DNA of 64,000 nt from an uncultured Alphaproteobacteria bacterium. GTDB lineage: Bacteria; Pseudomonadota; Alphaproteobacteria; Rhizobiales; Xanthobacteraceae. Made by a program: the position numbers and the translations under genes. Under the pieces are notes generated by a model that did not search any database, had not been told where the DNA came from, and saw only the letters and a program-made list of their open reading frames with translations. Shown here piece by piece: positions 10,403-31,237 of this stretch (within the stretch, counting starts at the first letter, position 1; each line of letters starts with the position of its first letter). The stretch spans positions 21,289-85,288 of the forward strand of contig CAWFXX010000010.1 in the NCBI GenBank assembly GCA_963819915.1. The letters run 5' to 3'.

Positions 10403-10891
10403 CTAGGACTGCTTCCAGGGCTTGAGGGTGCGAACTTCCCAGACGCCTTGCTGCTGCTTGCAGGCTTCGCCCTGAACCCACGCTTGCGAACTGCCGGTGA
10501 CAAAGCTCGCCAGGAAATTGCGGCAAGTCTGCCCGTCCTGGGTGTAGGCCGATGCGACGGGGGTCACCGTGCCGCGTGTGCCGGTGCTGGGGTTTTCCCA
10601 CGGCTGGCTGCTGTCTTTTTCGCCCCGGCCGAGCACCGCGCTGGCGGCGGCCCGCGCGTAAACAAGGTCGGCGTCGGGCGGCAATTGCGTGACTTCCTTC
10701 GATCCGGGCGGCGGCGTCACTGAGCCGGTCTGGTCGCTGCCGAAGAATGAATCAAACTGGCCGGACATGCTGCAACCACCCACAGCGAGCGACAATGTCA
10801 CCACGCCGGCAGCGGCCAGCCCACACCATAGGCGCGGACGTTCACATCCACTATATAATCCGCAGTATTGACGCGTTCTGGTCCCGACCAC
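10403..10891 (-). CDS. RT0821/Lpp0805-like surface lipoprotein (start uncertain)
   Basis: Lipobox-like LAVGGC; [23 protein letters not shown] 17-kDa-antigen-like domain. Confidence 0.75.
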
Positions 10892-10908
10892 GCGAAGCGC
10901 CCCAGCAG

Positions 10909-11550
10909 ATGTCCGACACGGCACCAATTCAACACCCAAGTTGGTTAACGACTGGTGATTTCACCGAGGCGGACGAGCCTTTGCGGCTCTTCACCGCATG
11001 GCTGGAGCAGGCCACCACCACCGAACCCCGCGACCCCACGGCCATGGTCCTGGCCACCGTCGATGCCGACGGCGTCCCGAATGCGCGGATGGTGCTGCTA
11101 AAAGGCATCGATGAGCGCGGTTTCGTGTTCTATACGAACGTAAACAGCCAAAAAGGGCGGGAATTGGATCGTCGCCCGCAAGCCGCCCTGGTCTTCTACT
11201 GGAAGTCGGTCAACCGGCAGGTCCGGCTGCGCGGCCATGTGGAACGGGTCACTGACGCCGAGGCCGACGCCTATTTCGCCTCCCGTCCGAAGCAGGCCCA
11301 GATCGGCGCCTGGGCGAGCAAGCAATCGACGCCGCTCGAAAGCCGGCTCGCCTTCGAAAAAGCCGTGGCGGTCTATGCCGCGAAATATGCGCTCAGTGAT
11401 GTGCCGCGCCCGCCCAATTGGTCCGGATATCGGATCGTGCCGCTCTCGATCGAGTTCTGGCAGGAACGGCCTTTCCGTCTGCACGACCGCATCGAGTTCA
11501 AGCGCGACGGACTTGGCGCACCCTGGAGCAAGACGCGGCTTTATCCCTGA
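10909..11550 (+). CDS. pdxH: Pyridoxine/pyridoxamine 5'-phosphate oxidase
   Basis: [38 protein letters not shown]. Confidence 0.96.
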
Positions 11551-11597
11551 GCTAGGCTTGATGGTCGTAGCCAGGCTGGAACAATTCAAAGGACGGT

Positions 11598-12350
11598 ATG
11601 CCGAATTCGCAATCGAACCAGCCGCGCCGCACGTTGCTTCTCACCGGAGCAAGCCGCGGCATTGGCCATGCGACCGTCAAACGTTTCTCGGCGGCCGGCT
11701 GGCGTGTGATCACCTGTTCGCGTCATCCGTTTCCGGAAAATTGCCCGTGGGACGCCGGTCCGGAAGATCACATCCAGGTCGATCTTGCAAACGAAGCCAA
11801 TACCGACGCGGCGATTGCCGAGATCAAGCAGCGGCTCGATACGCATGAATTGCACGCGCTCGTCAACAACGCGGCGATCTCGCCCAAAGCTGATGGCGGC
11901 AAGAGGCTCAGCACGCTCGACACCAGCAACGACGATTGGCACCACGTCTTTCAGGTCAACTTCTTTGCCCCGATTATGCTGGCGCGCGGTCTAGTGAATG
12001 AACTCAAGGCGGCGAAGGGCTCAGTGGTAAACGTGACATCGATTGCCGGCTCGCGCGTTCATCCCTTCGCGGGCGCAGCCTATTCGACATCGAAGGCGGC
12101 ACTCGCTGCCCTCACCCGCGAAATGGCCAGCGACTTTGGCCGCCTCGGCATTCGTGTCAACGCTATTGCACCAGGCGAAATCGACACCGCCATTCTGTCT
12201 CCCGGCACGGAAAAGATTGTCGAGCAAATACCGCTACAGCGTCTCGGCACGCCGGACGAAGTTTCCAAAATCATCTACGTGCTGTGCACCGACACGAGCT
12301 CCTACGTGAACGGCGCCGAGATCCATATCAATGGCGGTCAGCACGTGTGA
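11598..12350 (+). CDS. SDR family oxidoreductase
   Basis: TGASRGIG, NNAA, YSTSK, NAIAPG. Confidence 0.92.
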   Translation: MPNSQSNQPRRTLLLTGASRGIGHATVKRFSAAGWRVITCSRHPFPENCPWDAGPEDHIQVDLANEANTDAAIAEIKQRLDTHELHALVNNAAISPKADGGKRLSTLDTSNDDWHHVFQVNFFAPIMLARGLVNELKAAKGSVVNVTSIAGSRVHPFAGAAYSTSKAALAALTREMASDFGRLGIRVNAIAPGEIDTAILSPGTEKIVEQIPLQRLGTPDEVSKIIYVLCTDTSSYVNGAEIHINGGQHV

Positions 12351-12406
12351 GGCGGGTTCGCGGCACAAAGCAAATACCGCTCGTTTCCCGGCGCGTCGTA
12401 TCCGCT

Positions 12407-12497
12407 GTCATGGCCGGGCTTGTCCCGGCCATCCCGTTTAGGTTTGGCACCGCGTTGCCTTTCTAAGCGGGATCACCGGGACGAGCCCGGTGATGAC
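12407..12497. repeat. REP-like element (gtcatggccgggcttgtcccggccat class)
   Basis: Hairpins atggccggg/cccggccat and atcaccggg/cccggtgat flanking a paired core. Confidence 0.85.
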
Positions 12498-12548
12498 GTG
12501 CGGCGGGCGCAGTTGAGCCGCTTCGCGCCAAGACAAGCGTCATCGCCC

Positions 12549-13047
12549 TGTTTCTTTGCGGCGCCGGGTACGCCGTCGTCCATCGGCAGAAACTCGCGCC
12601 GCCGGGAAAAGAACCGAGGGCGCGCGGGACGCCAAGGGTCATAATGGACCCACGGGCCTCGACGCCTCGCGACATCGAGGCTTGTCGAAGTCCTTTGTAG
12701 TGCCGCAAGTCCGCCAAACCCAAGGCGTCCCGCGCGCGGTGTTTGAGGTTTGCTCCGCGCCGTCCCCGGTGGTCGACCCGTTCGTCACACCGGCCCGTTG
12801 TCCGTTCCGTGCAACGCTCCACCGTTTGAGGCCCTGGCACCTCAGCCAGCGATGCTTCTGACCGCCCGCCGGCTTACCAGCCGTCAGTGGGGCTCTCGGC
12901 GTGCGGCAGGCACGCCGGGATCGTGCGCGGCTTGGACCGCCGGGTGGGAAGTACGCGCCGCATCTCCGACGCCCCATTCCCGGCCACCGCTCCCCGCCCC
13001 GCGTCTGGAGACGCTGATCAGACACCCCTCGGTAACGGGGCGGGATG
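12549..13047. other. ~500 bp highly structured non-coding element (candidate MITE-like element or structured RNA)
   Basis: Long-range 20-nt inverted repeat 12620-12639 / 12718-12737, several internal hairpins, terminal stem 12993-13001 / 13036-13044; no credible ORF. Confidence 0.6.
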
Positions 13048-13138
13048 ACAATAGGAAAACATACCTTAGGAATAAAATCAAGAGCCGCCGGCGGAAGTTC
13101 AATGGCCGGTACCAGGCTGACGTATACGAAATGATAAC

Positions 13139-13160
13139 TGACGAATATTGACATTCATCA
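13139..13160. promoter_or_regulatory. Candidate TetR operator overlapping a TTGACA -35
   Basis: TGACGAAT-N6-ATTCATCA imperfect palindrome with TTGACA at 13148-13153, upstream of an RND operon that ends in tetR. Confidence 0.5.
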
Positions 13161-13197
13161 TTAGTTATGGCGTTGTCAGGTCATTGGAGGTCCAAAA

Positions 13198-14295
13198 ATG
13201 TCCGCTCCCGCCAGTTTCTCCATATTTCACAAGCTGTTGGTCTTGTTGCCTGTCGTCGCCCTCGCCGGCTGCGAACCCACCACAGCCCAACAGCCCGCGC
13301 CTGCAAGGCCGGTTCTCGTCACCAGCGTCCATTTTGAGCCCCAGGTCGCCGACCGCAGCTTTGTCGGCACAATCCGCCCGCGGATCGAAAGCGACCTGGG
13401 CTTCCGGGTAGCCGGGAAGGTATCCCGGCGACTGGTCGAGGTCGGCGCGCTGGTCGAGAGCGGTCAGCCGCTGGCGACGCTAGACGAGACCGACCTCACC
13501 TTGCAGGCCGAACAGGCCAAGGCCGAGCTAAGGGCGGCGACCGGGGTGGTCGCCCAGGCGAGCGCTGCCGAAACCCGCACCAGCGAACTGCGGCAGAAGG
13601 GCTGGTCGACCGATGCGCAGCTCGACCAAGCCAAGGCGGCGGCTGACGAGGCTCGCGCGCGGCTCAGCCGCGCGCAGCAGTCGGTCGAGCTGACGAAGAA
13701 CAGTCTCTCCTACGCGACGCTTGTTGCCGATGCTCCTGGGGTGGTCACCGCAACTTTGGTCGAGCCCGGTCAGGTCGTTGCTTCCGGACAGACGGCCATC
13801 CGCGTGGCGCGGCTTGGCGAAAAGGAAGTCGTGGTCGCGATACCCGAAACACTATTGACGCGCGCCAGGTCCGCCGAGGCGCGGGTCTCGATCTGGTCCG
13901 AGCCGGGCAAGGATTACGTGGCGAAGCTTCGCGAGCTCGCCCCCTCTGCCGATCCGGCAACACGAACCTATCTCGCCAAGTTCTCGATGCCCGGCGCCGG
14001 CAATGAAGTACAGCTCGGAATGACAGCGACACTGATATTGTCCGATGCAGCCAGCGAACGCGTTGCTCGTCTTCCCCTCTCCGCGTTGTTCGATCAGGGC
14101 GGCGGTCCCGCGCTTTACATTGTCGACAGCAAGACCGGCGCCGTCATACTCAAGTACGTGACCGTCAAGGCCTATGAAGCCAGCAACGTGCTGATCAGCG
14201 GTGGCGTCGATGAAGGCGCAAACGTGGTGACCCTCGGCGTGCAGAAACTCGAGCCTGCCGAGAAAGTCAAAGTGGTTTCGTCCCTCTCATTCTGA
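13198..14295 (+). CDS. RND efflux periplasmic adaptor subunit (lipoprotein)
   Basis: LAGC lipobox, GFRVAGKV, alpha-hairpin, ADPATRTY, LPLSAL. Confidence 0.92.
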   Translation: MSAPASFSIFHKLLVLLPVVALAGCEPTTAQQPAPARPVLVTSVHFEPQVADRSFVGTIRPRIESDLGFRVAGKVSRRLVEVGALVESGQPLATLDETDLTLQAEQAKAELRAATGVVAQASAAETRTSELRQKGWSTDAQLDQAKAAADEARARLSRAQQSVELTKNSLSYATLVADAPGVVTATLVEPGQVVASGQTAIRVARLGEKEVVVAIPETLLTRARSAEARVSIWSEPGKDYVAKLRELAPSADPATRTYLAKFSMPGAGNEVQLGMTATLILSDAASERVARLPLSALFDQGGGPALYIVDSKTGAVILKYVTVKAYEASNVLISGGVDEGANVVTLGVQKLEPAEKVKVVSSLSF

Positions 14296-22656: not shown

Positions 22657-24297
22657 ATGCTCGGGCTGATGCAGGATTGGCCGTTGCTATGCCATCGCAT
22701 CATTGACCATGCCGCCATTTTCCATGGCGAACGCAAGGTCATCACGCGCTCGGTTGAAGGACCGATGCACACCACGAATTATGCGGAGATCCGCGCTCGC
22801 GCGTTAAAGGTTGCGCAGCGGCTCGACAAAGACGGCATCAAGCTTGGCGACCGGGTGGCCACCCTTGCGTGGAATACCTGGCGGCATCTCGAAGCCTGGT
22901 ACGGCATTCTCGGCATCGGCGCGGTCTATCACACGGTGAACCCGCGCCTCTTCCCCGAGCAGATCGCCTGGATCATCAACCACGCCGGCGATCGGGTGAT
23001 GATGACTGATCTCACTTTTGTGCCGCTGCTGGAAAGAATCGCCGACAAGCTGCCGACCATCGAGCGCTACATCATACTCACCGATGCAGCGCATATGCCG
23101 AAGACCACGTTGAAGAATGCCGTGGCTTACGAAGACTGGATCGGTGAAGTGGATGGTGATTTCGCCTGGAAATCGTTCGACGAAAATACTGCCGCGGGCA
23201 TGTGTTACACGTCCGGCACGACCGGGCACCCCAAGGGCGTGGTCTACTCGCACCGCTCCAATGTCCTGCACGCCTTCATGGCGGCGATGCCGGACTGCAA
23301 GGGCCTGTCGTCACGCGATGTCGTGCTGCCGGTGGTGCCGTTATTCCACGCCAATGGCTGGTCGCTTGCCTTCTCGACACCGATGGTCGGCGCGACAGTG
23401 ATCATGCCCGGTGCCAAACTTGACGGCGCTTCGATCTACGAGCTTCTCAATACATACAAAGTGTCATTCACCGCGGCCGTGCCGACCGTGTGGCTGATGC
23501 TGCTCCAGGATCTGGAAAAAACCGGCGGTAAGCTGCCGCATCTCAAGCGCGTGGTGATCGGCGGCTCCGCCTGCCCGCGCGCCATGACCAAGACTTTCCA
23601 GGACGTCTACGGCGTCGAAGTCGTGCATGCCTGGGGCATGACCGAAATGAGCCCGCTCGGCTCGCTCTGCACCATGAAACCGGAATATGCCGTGCTCACG
23701 GGGGAAGCGAAGCTCGACGTCGAGATGAAGCAGGGCCATCCGCCGTTCGGCGTTGAGATGAAGATTACCGACGACAACGGAAAGCCCCTGCCCTGGGATG
23801 GCAAGACATTCGGCCGCCTGAAGGTTCGCGGACCGGCGGTGGCGAAGAGCTACTACAAGGTCGACAACGATCCTGTTTTCGAAAAAGACGGCTGGTTCGA
23901 CACCGGTGATGTCGCCATCATGGACCAATACGGCTACATGCAGATTACCGATCGCGCCAAGGACGTTATCAAGTCGGGCGGCGAATGGATTTCATCGATC
24001 GATCTCGAAAATCTCGCGGTCGGCCATCCGAAAGTTGCCGAGGCCGCGGTGATCGGCATTACACATCCGAAATGGGGCGAACGGCCGCTGCTGGTGATCG
24101 TGCTCAAGAAGGGCGAGAACGCCACCAGGGAAGAACTCCTCGGGTACATGCAGGACAAGATCGCGAAGTGGTGGATGCCGGATGACGTGGTGTTCGTTGA
24201 CGAAATTCCGCATACGGCCACCGGCAAGATCCAGAAACTCATCCTGCGCCAGACCTTCAAGGATTATCGACTCCCGAACGTCCAGGCAGCCGAATAA
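22657..24297 (+). CDS. Medium/long-chain acyl-CoA ligase (AlkK/DmdB-like)
   Basis: [40 protein letters not shown]. Confidence 0.92.
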
Positions 24298-24800: not shown

Positions 24801-25220
24801 ATGGTGCAACTCGCCAAAGGAGATACCGGACGCTTTTGTTGGGTCGACCTGGCTGCGACCGATGCCGACAGCGCGAAGGCTTTTTACGAAAATCTGTTCG
24901 GGTGGACATCACATGAGCAGCCGGCCAATGGCGGCAGTTTTACGCGGTTGCGGTTGAGCAATCACGACGTCGGCTCGATCTACCAATTGCGGGACGCGCT
25001 TCTGGAGCACGGCATTCCCTCGCATTGGACGCCTTATGTCCGGGTGCAAAATGTGAATGATACTGTGCGACGCGCCCTCTCGCTCGGTGCAACGGTGATC
25101 GCCAGTCCCTTCGTGGTATCCGGCATTGCGCGAATAGCGCTTATCCTGGATTCGGTCGGTGCGCTCATTGGCCTGTGGGAGCCAATCGAATTGGACATGA
25201 AAGCGAATGGCCATGGCTAG
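24801..25220 (+). CDS. VOC (glyoxalase/bleomycin resistance) family protein
   Basis: FCWVDL, AKAFYENLFGW, HWTPYVRV, D..GALIGLW. Confidence 0.88.
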   Translation: MVQLAKGDTGRFCWVDLAATDADSAKAFYENLFGWTSHEQPANGGSFTRLRLSNHDVGSIYQLRDALLEHGIPSHWTPYVRVQNVNDTVRRALSLGATVIASPFVVSGIARIALILDSVGALIGLWEPIELDMKANGHG

Positions 25221-26304
25221 AAAAAGAACATCGCGGGCAAAACGGAGCACACACGAATTGTCTCCGGCCACGAAGAGTGACCGTCTCATCGACGTCACGG
25301 TCGTTGTTCTGGAAGATGGATACGCGTCAACGGCGATCGCACCGATCGAAATCTTTCACGCCGCAGGCGTGGTCTGGAATTGGCTCAATGCTGAAACATT
25401 GAAGCCGCAATTCCGCGTGCGAACCGCGTCGATCCATGGACGAAAAGTGAAGGCGGCCGGCTCCCTCAGTCTCGTACCTGATTGCGCAATCCAAGACATC
25501 AAGCACACCGACATTATTATCATCGCGGCTCCCGGTTGGGACGTGCTCGACCACATTGCGAAAAATACGCCCCTCGTCCCGTGGGTGAAAAAATGGCACG
25601 AGCGCGGCGCCTACATTGCGGGTGCGTGCACAGGTGTTGCATTTCTCGCGGAAAGCGGAATCCTCGATGGCCATGTTGCAACAACCCATTGGGGTGTCGC
25701 TGACATTTTCCGCAAGCGTTATCCGAAAGTCCTGTGGCAAACCGAACAGTTTGTGACGGAAGACCGGCGACTATGCTGCAGCGGCGGCGTCTACGCATCG
25801 ATTGATCTGAGCCTGTATCTGGTGGAGAAATTCTGCGGCCACGAAGTCGCCCTTCAGTGCGCCAAGTCCCTGCTGCTCAGCATGCCGCGCGGCCGCCAAT
25901 CGGGGTATTCGGTGGTGCAGCTGGCGCGGCCGCATTCCGACGACAAGATCAGGAAAACCGAGGAATACCTGCAACAACACTACGATTCTGACATCTCGAT
26001 CGAACGCCTCGCCGAGCGCGCCGGCATGGGCCCGCGCAATTTCATCCGGCGTTTCAAGGCCGCAACCGGCCGCGTTCCCGGCGCCTATGTCCAGACCTTG
26101 CGGGTCTCGGCAGCCAAGGAAATGCTGGAAAATGGCGCATCTTCGATCCAGGCGGTGTCCTCGAAGATCGGATACGATGATATCGGTTTTTTCCGGAATC
26201 TGTTCAAACGCCACACCGGAATGACCCCCGGCGAGTATCGCGACCGGTTTTCGCAGATGTCCTACGACCGGGGCGAATTGGCCTCCGGTAGACCGGCTGC
26301 CTAG
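25207..26304 (+). CDS. GlxA-family regulator (DJ-1/PfpI-like domain + AraC HTH)
   Basis: IAGACTG, ATTHW, CCSGG, RNFIRRFKAATG, GMTPGEYR. Confidence 0.92.
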   Translation: MAMARKRTSRAKRSTHELSPATKSDRLIDVTVVVLEDGYASTAIAPIEIFHAAGVVWNWLNAETLKPQFRVRTASIHGRKVKAAGSLSLVPDCAIQDIKHTDIIIIAAPGWDVLDHIAKNTPLVPWVKKWHERGAYIAGACTGVAFLAESGILDGHVATTHWGVADIFRKRYPKVLWQTEQFVTEDRRLCCSGGVYASIDLSLYLVEKFCGHEVALQCAKSLLLSMPRGRQSGYSVVQLARPHSDDKIRKTEEYLQQHYDSDISIERLAERAGMGPRNFIRRFKAATGRVPGAYVQTLRVSAAKEMLENGASSIQAVSSKIGYDDIGFFRNLFKRHTGMTPGEYRDRFSQMSYDRGELASGRPAA

Positions 26305-26517: not shown

Positions 26518-28665
26518 ATGGTACAGGTAGTCATCCTCGACGATCGAGAGACCAATCGAAAGATTTTTTCGAAGCTTGCCGCTTCGATTGAACCTGGCGT
26601 GATGGTCCATAGCTTCGGCGATCCGCTCGAACTTCTCGCCTGGCTCAAGCACAACACGCCCGACCTCATCGTCACTGATTTCAAAATGCCGACGATGGAC
26701 GGCGCAGAATTTATCTGCCGCCTCCGCGCGCAACCCGATTGCGGCGAGATTCCCGTGATCGTCATAACGGTTTACGAGGAACGCGAATTCCGCCTGCGAG
26801 CGCTCGAGGCCGGCGCCACCGATTTTCTTCACAGCCCGGTCGACCACCAGGAATTCATCACCCGCGCTCGCAATCTCCTGAAGTTGCGCAAGCAGCAGAT
26901 CCAACTCGCCGCCCGAGCCGACAATCTCGCGCAGGAGCTCAAGGATTCTGAGCGTTCGCGCGAAGCCGCGCTGCGCGATTCCAGCGAACGGCTTGCCCAG
27001 GTGATCGATACCGTCCCGGCCATGATCAGCGCCACCGACAACCAGGGACGCATTCTGTTCATCAACGCGTATCTCGCCGAGCTCGCCGGCATCGGCGCGG
27101 CCAAAGCAGTCGGGTTCGATATGCAGCCCGCCTTTGGTGAAGACTACGCGACGCGCAGCAAGGCGCTTGACCGCAAGGTCATCAACACGCAGGCCGCATT
27201 GCCGAGCTTCGAGGAGGAGATCGTCGACGCGAGAGGCACCAAACGCGTGTTCCTGACGACGAAAACGCCGCTGCGCGACGGCGCCAACGCTGTGGTCGGT
27301 GTACTGACCTCTTCGCTCGATATCACCGACCGCAAGCTTGCCGAAAATCATCTTTTCTACATGGCGCACCACGACGGGTTGACCAACCTCGCAAACCGCG
27401 CGCTATTGTCCGACCGGCTGCGCCGCGAGATCGCCCGCACGCGTCGCGGCGACCGCCCGTTTGCCCTTCATCTCATCGATCTCGACGGATTCAAGGACAT
27501 CAACGACGGGCTTGGCCACCAGGCCGGTGACCAGTTCCTTGTCGAGGTTGCCGACCGGTTGCGCCTGGTCGTGCGTGATACCGATACGGTCGCCCGTCTC
27601 GGCGGCGACGAGTTCGCGGTGTTGCAAACGCGCGTGACTCGGAACGAGGACGCGGCCGACATGGCCACCCGCATCCTCGAGGCTATCAACAAGCCCTGGT
27701 CGCATGCGGGCGAGCAGGTCAATTCAAGCGCCAGTATCGGCATCACTATTCACCCCACCGACGGCGCCGACGTGCAGGACCTACTTCGCAACAGCGATCT
27801 TGCGATGTATCGGGCAAAGCACGATGGCGGCAAGGTTTTCCGCTTCTACGCCTCGGATATGGACCGGCGGGCGCGCGCCAGCCTGGTCCTCGACGCCGAT
27901 CTGCGCGAGGCCATCGCCGCGGGCCAATTCGTCCTGCACTACCAACCGCAGATCGCGGTGCGTACCGGTCAGGTTGTCGGCGCGGAAGCGCTGCTCCGCT
28001 GGCAGCGCCCCGGCCACGGCCTCATCGGCCCAAGCGATTTCCTGGCGCGGGCGGAAGAGAACGGACTTATCGTTCCGATCAACGAATGGGCGCTTCGCGA
28101 AGCGTGCCGGCAGGCCAAGTCCTGGCAGCAGCGTGGACAGCCGCCGCTTCGTGTCGGCGTCAACCTGTCGTCGATTCAGTTCTTCAAGCAAAACGTTCCG
28201 TTGCTGGTGACCAAGGTTCTGGCCGAAACCGGGCTTGAGCCTTGGTTGCTCGATCTCGAGCTGACGGAAAGCATCGTCATGCACAACGCCGAAGCGGTCT
28301 CCAAGGACTTGCAGCAGTTGCGCGAACTCGGAGTCGGCATTTCGATCGACGATTTTGGAACGCGTTATTCGACGCTTTCCTACGTCAAACATTTTCCGGT
28401 CGACCGACTCAAGATCGACCAGTGTTTCGTCCGCGACATGGCAAGCAACCCGAGCGATGCCGCGATCGTCCGTGCAATCGTAAGCCTCGGTCATAGCCTC
28501 GATCTCGAGATCGTTGCGGAAGGCGTGGAGACCGTCCAGCAGGCCACGCTTTTGCGTGCCGAAGGGTGCGACGAGGTGCAGGGCTTCTACTACGCGGGCG
28601 CAATGCAGGCTGACGAGCTGATTGCCTACGTCAGGGATATTCGCGCGCGGGCGCGCAGCGCGTGA
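26518..28665 (+). CDS. Response regulator REC-PAS-GGDEF-EAL with an RpfG-like receiver domain
   Basis: ILDD...FGDPL...TDFKMP...[10 protein letters not shown]; PAS; RDTD I-site + RLGGDEF; EALLRW, ELTES, DDFGT, EGVE. Confidence 0.93.
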
Positions 28666-28672
28666 GGCTCGG

Positions 28673-31237
28673 ATGGGGGAAGATTTCCGAAAAGCTCTTC
28701 CAGCGTGGCATGCGGGAAAACCCGTGACCCGGATCTTTTCCTGGATTGCGGGCCGGTTGCGCAATCGGCCGGACTCCGAGCACGAATTGACCGTCAACCG
28801 GCTGGTGATCAGCGGGACGGCCTTCACTTATCTCATCATTGCAGCGCAGTTCGGCCAAAGAGGCGCCGAGCGGATGCTGCACGACCAAAGTCCTTATTTT
28901 GCCGTCTACCAGATCGTCTCCGTCGTCCTGTTCTGTCACCTGCTTTACCGGCCAGGCATTTCCGTCGGACGACGCCTCGTCGGAATGGTGTTCGACCTCG
29001 GCCTCTTTTCATACGGCATGCATGTCGGCGGCGAGACTTTCGCGCTGCTCTACCCGGTGTATCTGTGGGTGATCTTTGGAAACGGCTTTCGCTTCGGCGT
29101 GCCCTATTTGTTTGCCGCTTCCGCCACCAGCGTCCTGACCTTCGGCACCGTCATCGCGACGACGGCCTTCTGGCAGGAGCACCGCGGGCTGGCTTCCGGC
29201 TTGACCGCGGGTCTTGTCCTGTTGCCGCTCTATGTGTCGACGCTGATCCGCAAGCTGTCGGAAGCCAAACGCCAGGCTGAAGAGGCAAACCGCGCAAAAA
29301 GCGCCTTCCTCGCCAGCATGAGCCACGAATTCCGCACGCCGCTCAATGCCATCATTGGGCTGAGCGACATGCTGCGCGAATCCTCACTGGATCCCGAGCA
29401 GGATGAAATGTCCGACACAATCGGCAAGTCCGGACGCCAGCTTCTCACCCTGATCAATTCAGTCCTCGATTTCTCGCGCGCCGAAGCGGGCCGGATCACA
29501 ATCAAGAACGTCGACTTCGACCTGGTTTCCCTGCTCGGGGAGATCCGGAACATGCTTTCCTTCGAAGCCCAGCGCAAAGGCGTGAGGCTCGCAATCCACT
29601 GCACAGCGCGTACTCCGCGCCTGCTGGTGGGGGACAAACCCCACCTCGAGGAAGTCCTCATCAATCTTGCAGGCAACGCTGTGAAATTCACCGAACGCGG
29701 CTTCGTCGTCATCGCGGTTGACGCTGTTGCCCGCGACGGCGACCGTGTGCGGCTGCGCTTCGAGGTGACCGACACCGGAATCGGCATCAGCAGCGACGCT
29801 CAGACGCGTGTCTTCGAACGCTTCACGCAGGCCGACGAGACCATCATCGATCGTTTTGGTGGCACCGGGCTCGGGCTCGCCATCGCCAGGCAGCTTGTCG
29901 AACTCCAGGGCGGCAATATCGGTGTCCAAAGCGTCCCCGGCAAAGGCAGCACGTTCTGGTTCGAAATCGAGTTGGAGGCGCAGGCGCAGAATCCGCTGCA
30001 AGTCTACACGGCACAAACGCCGATCGTCTTCGCCGGCGGCAATGACGACGATCGCGCGGTCGCGAGGTCTTGCGTGCCGAATGTGATGTTCTCCGATACA
30101 ATGGGCGCGGCTGCGGCCGCTCTGGCATCGCTGCGGGCGGACGGCGTGCGTCGCCCGATTGCCGTTATTTATCACGACGTCGCCGGCCAACTGGACGAGG
30201 CTGCGTTCGAGACATTAGTCGGCGACAACCCTGCCTGCACGCCCGCGCTCATCCTGGTAACAGACGATCACGGCGAAGGCCTCCCCGCAGGTATCGTGCG
30301 CAGCCGGTTCATGACAACGTTGTCCACGCCGCTCGACCCGGTGAAGTTCGTCGCAGGCCTGCAAATCGCGCGCGGCAACAGCGCCGCCGAGCGTCCTGAT
30401 AGTGCCCGCAATCGCACGATCGTTGCGGCGCGCCGGCCGTTGTCGATCCTGGTTGCCGAAGACAAACGGACCAATCAAATGGTCATCGCCAAGATCCTCG
30501 ACCGCGCAGGCCATCGCGTCACCATCGTCGATAATGGCGAAGCGGCGCTCGATATCCTTGAAACACAGGACTTCGATCTGGTTTTGATGGACGTGAACAT
30601 GCCGGTGATGAACGGCATCGAAGCGACCAAGCTCTACCGCTTCGCAGCCCTCGGGCGGCCGCATGTGCCCATCGTGGCGCTCACGGCCGATGCAACAGAG
30701 GAAGTGAAACAGCGTTGCAAAGAAGCGGGCATGGATGCCTGCGCCACCAAGCCGATCGAGCCGCATCGACTGCTTGAGATTATCGCAACACTCGTGAACG
30801 ATGCCGCCAAGGGCCCCCGCGTGGTCGCAAGCAAAGGTGAAGCGGTTGGGCAGACTTCAGTGGCCGCGCGCACCATCAGGGAAGCGGCCGTCGATCTGGA
30901 TACGATCGACGCGCTGGAAAGCCTGGGTGGCAAGGAGTTCGTTGAAGAGCTCGCCACGCAGTTTCTCGACGATGCAGCCGATATCCTGCGTCAACTGTCC
31001 GATATCACGGCCGCCGGCGATACCCTTGCATTCCGCGAGCAATTGCATGCCCTGCGCAGCGCAGCGGCCAATATCGGGGCGCGCGGAATCTATGAAATGT
31101 GCCTCGCGTGGCGGCAAATCGCGCCGGAAGACCTCGCGAGCCAGGGTGAATTCTACCTCAATGGGCTGCGCGAGGAATTCGAACGCGTGTGTGTCGCTTT
31201 GCGTGGACGACTGTCCAAGCGCGACGTCGCGGCCTGA
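28673..31237 (+). CDS. rpfC: RpfC-type DSF sensor hybrid histidine kinase (TM-HisKA-HATPase-REC-HPT)
   Basis: RPDSEH N-terminal sensor, [26 protein letters not shown] (MDVNMP, TKP), [16 protein letters not shown]. Confidence 0.85.

Follow-up and report, generated by a model that had tools for sequence, protein, structure and literature searches.

We analysed a 64,000-nucleotide (nt) stretch of contig CAWFXX010000010.1 from an uncultured Xanthobacteraceae bacterium (assembly GCA_963819915.1; hereafter the window), a soil alphaproteobacterium in which a response regulator gene at 26518-28665 is followed by genes for an RpfC-like hybrid histidine kinase and an RpfF-family crotonase. At a probability that we put at about 0.7, these genes would form a diffusible signal factor (DSF)-type phosphorelay that controls the turnover of cyclic di-GMP (c-di-GMP) through a swapped-output enzyme that is probably bifunctional, a reading that we infer throughout from sequence and gene order. 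A first-pass annotation of the window had proposed a hybrid, third type of DSF circuit with a phosphorelay-type input and a PAS-GGDEF-EAL output, and both the RpfG type of the receiver and the conserved adjacency of the genes support this proposal.

The literature describes two core routes for perceiving DSF, namely RpfC/RpfG, in which the output is HD-GYP, and RpfR, a PAS-GGDEF-EAL protein that works without a kinase (PMC4504480). A KEGG-based survey lists RpfC-RpfG among the systems of alpha-proteobacteria and does not comment on architecture (PMC8895600), and a passage of a 2026 paper still terms DSFs a gammaproteobacterial signal family (PMC13711827). Our literature search found no paper on an RpfC partner with a REC-PAS-GGDEF-EAL architecture, although most subscription journals lay outside its scope and this absence is not proof. 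The family of every part was already known; what is novel is the conserved combination and how far it has spread in Alphaproteobacteria, together with a receiver subclade that lacks the conserved lysine.

The regulator reads from an ATG at 26518 to a TGA at 28665, and all of the motifs that the first-pass annotation had quoted from it were found in its translation. Its receiver (REC) keeps D8 and D9 (in VILDD), D54, T84 (in IPVIVITV) and F103. The canonical CheY-like quintet is incomplete in that the acidic pair, the phosphoacceptor aspartate and the threonine are present while the position of the conserved lysine is occupied by S106 (codon 26833-26835, in GATDFLHSP). Pfam detected an RpfR-style PAS-GGDEF-EAL core in the regulator and no HD_5/HD-GYP output domain. 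The I-site RDTD (residues 353-356) lies exactly five residues ahead of GGDEF (362-366). In the EAL domain, loop 6 reads DDFGTRYS (611-618), with R616 encoded at 28363-28365, and the remaining catalytic motifs (EALLRW, NLS, ELTES, KID, EGVE and QG) are intact. With both active sites conserved, the enzyme is probably bifunctional. The genome, which is an estimated 96% complete, has 17 EAL and 16 GGDEF regions and yielded no match to PF13487 (HD-GYP), so it has no RpfG-type output at its disposal.

The receiver had been likened to that of RpfG, and direct comparison with a genuine RpfG bears this out. As reference we used a locus (L055) from one of two genomes that scored above the RpfF-model cut-off in a phylum-wide search; the REC and linker of the regulator align with its RpfG at 40% identity over 171 amino acids (aa) with zero gaps (BLASTP). 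When the regulator REC was searched in three genomes with the canonical rpfG-rpfC><rpfF layout, RpfG scored 98-106 bits and the next receiver 46-57 bits. In the reverse search, the RpfG REC matched the regulator at 94.5 bits in the window's own genome, with a runner-up receiver at 62.6 bits. The two are reciprocal best matches, and on this measure the receivers are orthologous. In a tree of 119 receivers (135 columns, built by a quick search, with conclusions drawn from starred branches only), RpfG receivers, the regulator and its relatives form a clade with a Shimodaira-Hasegawa-like approximate likelihood ratio test (SH-aLRT) value of 99. All 40 other receivers of the window's own genome in the tree fall outside this clade; they include the receiver of the kinase itself and the next-best match of the RpfG REC, a 497-aa open reading frame (ORF) presumed to be PleD-like. 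The receiver is thus RpfG-like and groups with neither PleD nor CheY receivers. PleD was considered as an equally close receiver and rejected, as its 92 bits in the PDB search add up the scores of its two receivers (57 + 33). PleD was also the best NCBIfam match of the isolated REC, yet the score was 77.7 bits where the cut-off is 474. NCBIfam had no RpfG or RpfC model that helped to classify the REC or the sensor.

The ATG of the kinase lies 7 nt past the regulator stop codon, and 13 nt separate the kinase stop at 31237 from the stop codon of the convergent crotonase gene. By Pfam, the kinase has the HisKA-HATPase-REC-HPt architecture (HPt, histidine phosphotransfer) of RpfC. It is 31% identical to the xanthomonad RpfC of L055 across nearly its full length, and its sensor shares 33-37% identity with the two sensor copies of that locus, RpfC and RpfH-like, across about 180 aa. 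JGI annotation labels close homologues of the kinase RpfC and the regulators merely generic diguanylate cyclases, and an NCBIfam search with the sensor region returned H-box matches only. The RpfC-type sensor is present as a single copy in the window's genome. In RpfC of Xanthomonas campestris pv. campestris, the peptide R15-A-D17-S18-E19-H-A-Q22 contains five residues (R15, D17, S18, E19 and Q22) that are each required for DSF binding (PMC5391125). The RPDSEHEL motif of the kinase matches four of these five (R15, D17, S18 and E19).

The crotonase gene, also single copy in this genome as a member of the RpfF family, encodes a protein whose best matches in the PDB are the DSF synthases RpfF, Bcam0581 and Cronobacter RpfF (3m6m, 5fus and 6dgn; E ~1e-47, 164 bits), whereas metabolic crotonases reach an E value of 1e-13 or weaker and at most 55 bits. 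It passes the NCBIfam model NF006452 (349.7 bits, cut-off 177) and is 38% identical to xanthomonad RpfF, with the GGGFE and LPE motifs, which hold both catalytic glutamates, aligned and kept. Two glutamates are the catalytic residues of RpfF (PMC4504480).

Table 1. Features of the cluster and of its upstream neighbours, in window coordinates.
Feature	Position	Strand	Basis and remarks
Response regulator, REC-linker-PAS-GGDEF-EAL	26518-28665	+	715 aa; ORF, translation, Pfam; occupies the rpfG position in the cluster
Receiver, RpfG type, residues 4-117	26527-26868	+	Pfam Response_reg, E 9.7e-23
Helical linker, residues 118-156	26869-26985	+	Homologous to the linker between REC and HD-GYP of RpfG; gapless BLASTP alignment through residue 172
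PAS domain, residues 157-273	26986-27336	+	Pfam PAS_4, 164-273, E 2.1e-14; Pfam PAS, 157-263
GGDEF domain, residues 283-438	27364-27831	+	Pfam, E 2.1e-47; GGDEF motif and RxxD I-site intact
EAL domain, residues 460-693	27895-28596	+	Pfam, E 3.1e-72; catalytic motifs all kept
RpfC-like hybrid histidine kinase: multi-pass membrane sensor, HisKA, HATPase, REC, HPt	28673-31237	+	Pfam
RPDSEHEL motif	28766-28789	+	Directly before the first membrane helix; alignment and motif survey
RpfF-family crotonase, putative DSF-family signal synthase	31251-32321	-	Convergent with the kinase gene
Long-chain fatty-acid-CoA ligase (FadD-like)	22657-24297	+	NF004674, 989 bits
Glyoxalase-like protein	24801-25220	+	Upstream of the regulator
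DJ-1/PfpI-AraC regulator (FtrA-like)	25207-26304	+	Upstream of the regulator

The conservation of this arrangement was assessed in samples of species-representative genomes, from which all counts given here are taken. A crotonase scan of species representatives returned 24 loci, all from Pseudolabrys-like or unclassified alphaproteobacterial metagenome-assembled genomes (MAGs). On contigs that are long enough, the Pseudolabrys-like loci share the regulator-kinase-synthase arrangement, L021 excepted, and conservation is highest in the regulator, with identities of up to 99%, compared with 95% for the synthase and about 91% for the kinase. L021, a Pseudolabrys-related MAG, is rearranged: the synthase and the best kinase match (46% identity) share one strand, and about 5.5 kb separate the synthase from the regulator orthologue.

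In an even sample of Hyphomicrobiales (401 genomes from 150 genera), an RpfC-type sensor was present in 42 genomes and 21 genera, the window's own genome included. A REC-PAS-GGDEF-EAL gene lies directly upstream of the kinase in 34 of the 41 other genomes; a REC-HisKA-HATPase protein is encoded there instead in four, and the remaining three have no such upstream gene nearby, one of them lying at a contig end. Among the 34 regulator-kinase genomes, the synthase gene is convergent in 21, nearby in a different arrangement in one and elsewhere in the genome in three. The cultured Microvirga brassicacearum (GCA_008757455.1, contig VCMV01000014.1, locus L151) has a regulator of 716 aa, a kinase of 866 aa and a convergent crotonase of 337 aa, an AMP-binding gene lying directly upstream of the latter. 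The adjacency to rpfC and rpfF that the first-pass annotation had relied on is thus real in the window and conserved in Pseudolabrys-like loci, in the sampled Hyphomicrobiales and in Microvirga.

The other alphaproteobacterial orders, in which the sensor was found in 30 of 400 sampled genomes, mostly carry a different upstream gene. It encodes a REC-PAS-HisKA-HATPase protein with the same RpfG-like receiver in 18 of the 20 loci inspected (L152-L171) and a REC-PAS-GGDEF-EAL protein in the other two; the convergent kinase-synthase layout is present in 18 of the 20. The REC-PAS-HisKA-HATPase clusters would amount to a fourth wiring, in which a DSF-type kinase would feed a second kinase. L134 and L137-L139 were noted under this wiring together with L152-L171. 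Both known types appear in the phylum sample, REC-HD-GYP with RpfC in L055, L056 and L073, and RpfR-type GGDEF-EAL beside RpfF without a kinase in L060, L062, L070-L072 and L075-L077. The majority of genomes with an RpfF-like match in this sample belong to one family, f37, whose genomes are small (about 2 Mb). Six f37 loci (L065-L069 and L080) were inspected at 20 kb; in these, an RpfC-like kinase gene is convergent with an RpfF-like gene and no RpfG-type receiver gene is adjacent; the upstream genes in L065 encode NnrS and an Fe-S assembly protein. Regulator-kinase fusions, which were suggested by long open frames of 1450-1556 aa at some of the kinase genes, were rejected as chance open frames in GC-rich DNA, because the tblastn coordinates of the EAL and sensor matches, worked by hand for L059 only, fall in different reading frames.

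The first-pass annotation had singled out the lysine-to-serine change in the REC and the glycine-to-arginine change in EAL loop 6, and it advised checking both. Both are genuine: S106 and R616 are present in 20 of 20 full-length orthologues on independent MAG assemblies and are therefore not sequencing errors. Across 54 relatives that share the architecture of the regulator, S106 is conserved in 53, D54, T84 and the cis-proline P107 in all 54, and the acidic pair in 52, while the GGDEF motif and all EAL catalytic residues are invariant (54/54). Among the 150 best REC matches in a library of 1.8 billion representative proteins, GATDFLx(S/T/A)P is the reading in nearly all single-receiver proteins, and in about 100 of the closest of them the lysine is likewise replaced; the lysine-bearing entries are multi-receiver proteins, which score through several domains. 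In the receiver tree, the Ser/Thr forms make up a subclade (SH-aLRT 98) within the RpfG-type clade, to which the lysine-bearing HD-GYP receivers are basal. Taken together, the counts in relatives, the library matches and this subclade indicate that the replacement of lysine by serine is old, fixed and under selection, and that it characterises the receiver subclade as a whole. What had been read as a striking deviation is present, then, but it is clade-wide rather than peculiar to this gene. R616 was found solely in the Pseudolabrys-like group, all other relatives that show the motif having DDFGTG(Y/F)S, and the deviation in loop 6 stands as specific to that group.

In the mechanism that we propose, the RpfF-family crotonase would synthesise a cis-2-unsaturated fatty acid signal, which the RpfC-like hybrid kinase would bind at its R-x-D-S-E-H peptide beside the membrane helices. 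The kinase would then autophosphorylate and relay the phosphate from histidine to aspartate to the histidine of the HPt domain, which would hand it on to the regulator encoded upstream, at D54 of its RpfG-type receiver. Acting via the helical linker and the PAS domain, the receiver would control a tandem GGDEF-EAL enzyme and not an HD-GYP phosphodiesterase. The signal would in this way change c-di-GMP levels, most likely through a phosphodiesterase switch, with c-di-GMP falling at high cell density; we expect net degradation of c-di-GMP when the signal is present because of the analogy with RpfG and RpfR.

Several observations weigh against this phosphorelay. The conserved lysine of receivers (K109 of CheY) contacts the phosphoryl group, and without it phosphorylation-dependent switching in the regulator may be altered or absent; the missing lysine may also mean changed phosphorylation kinetics or a changed switching mechanism. 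In the Pseudolabrys-like clade, R616 could lower phosphodiesterase activity. The position of Q22 in the DSF-binding peptide, which is glutamine in xanthomonad-type and f37 loci in the motif survey, is leucine in the kinase and leucine, methionine or isoleucine in regulator-carrying alphaproteobacterial relatives. The crotonase fails the NCBI RpfF equivalog model NF053515 (199.7 bits, cut-off 550) and, because it lies below this cut-off, is best described as a relative of RpfF and not as its orthologue in the strict sense. Finally, nine of the 34 regulator-kinase genomes, which represent eight species of one genus and one other (loci L142-L150, genus g279; L135), lack any RpfF-family gene. The regulator-kinase pair can therefore operate where the cell makes no signal itself, and these genomes are possible receptor-only eavesdroppers.

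The missing lysine could be taken further, to the view that the regulator carries a pseudo-receiver, which is not switched by phosphorylation but docks the kinase or the synthase, leaving the enzyme to be regulated by contact or by the PAS domain. There is a precedent for such docking in Xanthomonas, where the REC of RpfC binds RpfF, and the old and fixed replacement of the lysine, seen in the relatives and in about 100 of the closest single-receiver library proteins, counts in favour of the view, as does a PAS domain between REC and enzyme. We nevertheless consider it unlikely. Pseudo-receivers usually lose several residues of the phospho-pocket, whereas the acidic pair, aspartate, threonine, cis-proline and aromatic switch residue are all kept here, and it is this conservation of the rest of the pocket that weakens the idea; moreover, the gene occupies the position of a cognate regulator beside a kinase with an intact His-Asp-His phosphorelay. 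Somewhat less probable again is that the cluster has no part in cell-to-cell signalling, with a metabolic crotonase, a kinase that senses membrane or lipid stress or exogenous fatty acids, and a likeness to rpf that reflects ancestry. The equivalog score and the nine genomes without an RpfF-family gene could be read in this way, as could the four genomes in which the synthase gene is unlinked or arranged differently and the fact that a signal molecule from this group is hitherto unreported. However, the crotonase is ~110 bits nearer to the solved RpfF and DSF synthases than to any metabolic crotonase, the sensor retains DSF-contact residues, and the convergent layout repeats that of xanthomonad rpfGC><rpfF, which 21 of the 34 Hyphomicrobiales genomes and 18 of the 20 loci of other alphaproteobacterial orders have kept.

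The remaining alternative, that the PAS domain is the actual DSF receptor, as in RpfR, and that input from the kinase through the REC is secondary, we regard as very improbable. The first-pass annotation had raised direct binding of DSF by the PAS domain together with an RpfR-like output. PAS_4-type domains do bind DSF in RpfS and RpfR (PMC4504480), which counts in favour of such a receptor, and the PAS-GGDEF-EAL architecture equals that of RpfR. This architectural part of the likeness held; the homology of the PAS domain and the presence of an FI domain did not. Against eight RpfR-type PAS regions encoded next to RpfF, the PAS domain of the regulator scored only 2-10 bits (HMMER, filters off), compared with 80-210 bits for its GGDEF and EAL domains against the same eight proteins, and DSF binding by the PAS domain is consequently without sequence support. 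A PDB search with this domain gave weak PAS matches, none of them named RpfR at E values up to 1. The regulator begins with the receiver and has no FI domain, and the ...FGTTSPxWRL... region with which the RpfR-type proteins (L070-L077) begin is absent from it. In most other clusters from Alphaproteobacteria this REC-PAS module is attached to a kinase core, and the comparison suggests that the PAS domain is a transmission module.

A broader picture, which we offer tentatively and which as a whole we think rather doubtful, would make these systems a separate alphaproteobacterial branch of DSF signalling. The branch would be built on the lysine-less RpfG-type receiver and a PAS adaptor with varied outputs: Hyphomicrobiales would use GGDEF-EAL, and most other orders a second histidine-kinase core. 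Phosphorylation would flip the bifunctional enzyme between making and breaking c-di-GMP, and species that have the regulator-kinase pair alone would listen in on signals made by neighbouring organisms. If this were true, flipping of the enzyme would make the response to cell density two-way. The third wiring that this locus and its many relatives show combines the kinase input of the RpfC/RpfG route with the enzyme type of the RpfR route, and it is found in 21 of 150 sampled Hyphomicrobiales genera, soil and plant-associated bacteria included. The swapping of output domains on an orthologous receiver constitutes a natural experiment, and the subclade points to a large receiver subfamily that would work without the conserved lysine. 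Microvirga brassicacearum is a cultured organism in which alphaproteobacterial DSF signalling could be studied directly.

Upstream of the regulator, the synteny of the ligase, glyoxalase-like and FtrA-like genes (Table 1) is maintained in Pseudolabrys-like loci. The FadD-like ligase was considered as an rpfB candidate and rejected, being only 26.5% identical to xanthomonad RpfB and not adjacent to the crotonase gene. A second c-di-GMP enzyme, with a PAS_7-GGDEF-EAL architecture, is encoded 6 kb beyond the crotonase gene (38517-40484, minus strand, 655 aa). It is 34-45% identical to the RpfF-adjacent RpfR-type proteins of other genomes, in alignments of mostly about 560-610 aa that include the PAS region, and is a better candidate for an RpfR-like protein than the regulator at 26518-28665. 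A GGDEF-EAL ORF with the canonical DDFGTGYS, possibly its orthologue, occurs in at least four Pseudolabrys-like loci. The sequence TTAATCAAAAATTAA, at 32337-32351, lies 16 nt upstream of the GTG start codon of the crotonase gene and has the form TTAA-N7-TTAA, which we take to be that of a CtrA box; two such sites occur in the 64-kb window, compared with 0.09 expected.

Of the known systems, RpfC/RpfG/RpfF of Xanthomonas campestris is matched in gene order and orientation (regulator, then kinase, then convergent synthase), in a homologous sensor with the R-x-D-S-E-H peptide, in the architecture of the kinase and in an RpfF-family synthase, and the receiver and linker of the regulator are orthologous to those of RpfG by reciprocal best match and tree. 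It differs in output, which is HD-GYP in Xanthomonas and PAS-GGDEF-EAL here, in a genome without HD-GYP, and at the receiver lysine, DFLVKP in RpfG and DFLHSP here; moreover, the window has no rpfH and no rpfB beside rpfF, and its host is a xanthobacteracean alphaproteobacterium. In the reference locus L055, rpfB-rpfF is convergent with rpfC-rpfG, RpfG consists of REC and HD-GYP, and an RpfH-like sensor copy and RpfC fall within a single 910-aa open frame (10573-13305, minus strand).

The RpfF/RpfR systems of Burkholderia cenocepacia and Cronobacter likewise have a PAS-GGDEF-EAL enzyme encoded near an RpfF-family synthase, and the GGDEF and EAL domains of RpfR-type proteins are 34-45% identical to those of the regulator. 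Here, in contrast, a phosphorelay kinase and an N-terminal receiver replace the FI domain of RpfR, the PAS domain is not specifically related, and the kinase gene separates the enzyme gene from the synthase gene. The closest solved or curated GGDEF-EAL cores are those of MorA of Pseudomonas aeruginosa, PdeR/YciR and DibA (PDB 4rnh, E 1.9e-113; NF045675 DibA and NF007474, both below their cut-offs), in which both active-site motifs are intact as they are in the regulator. MorA is bifunctional. These proteins have other input domains, and none is known with an RpfC-type kinase input. PleD (REC-REC-GGDEF) shares with the regulator the control of an I-site-bearing GGDEF domain by a receiver, but its D1 receiver scores 57 bits compared with 94-106 bits for RpfG, and the regulator has EAL and PAS domains in addition.

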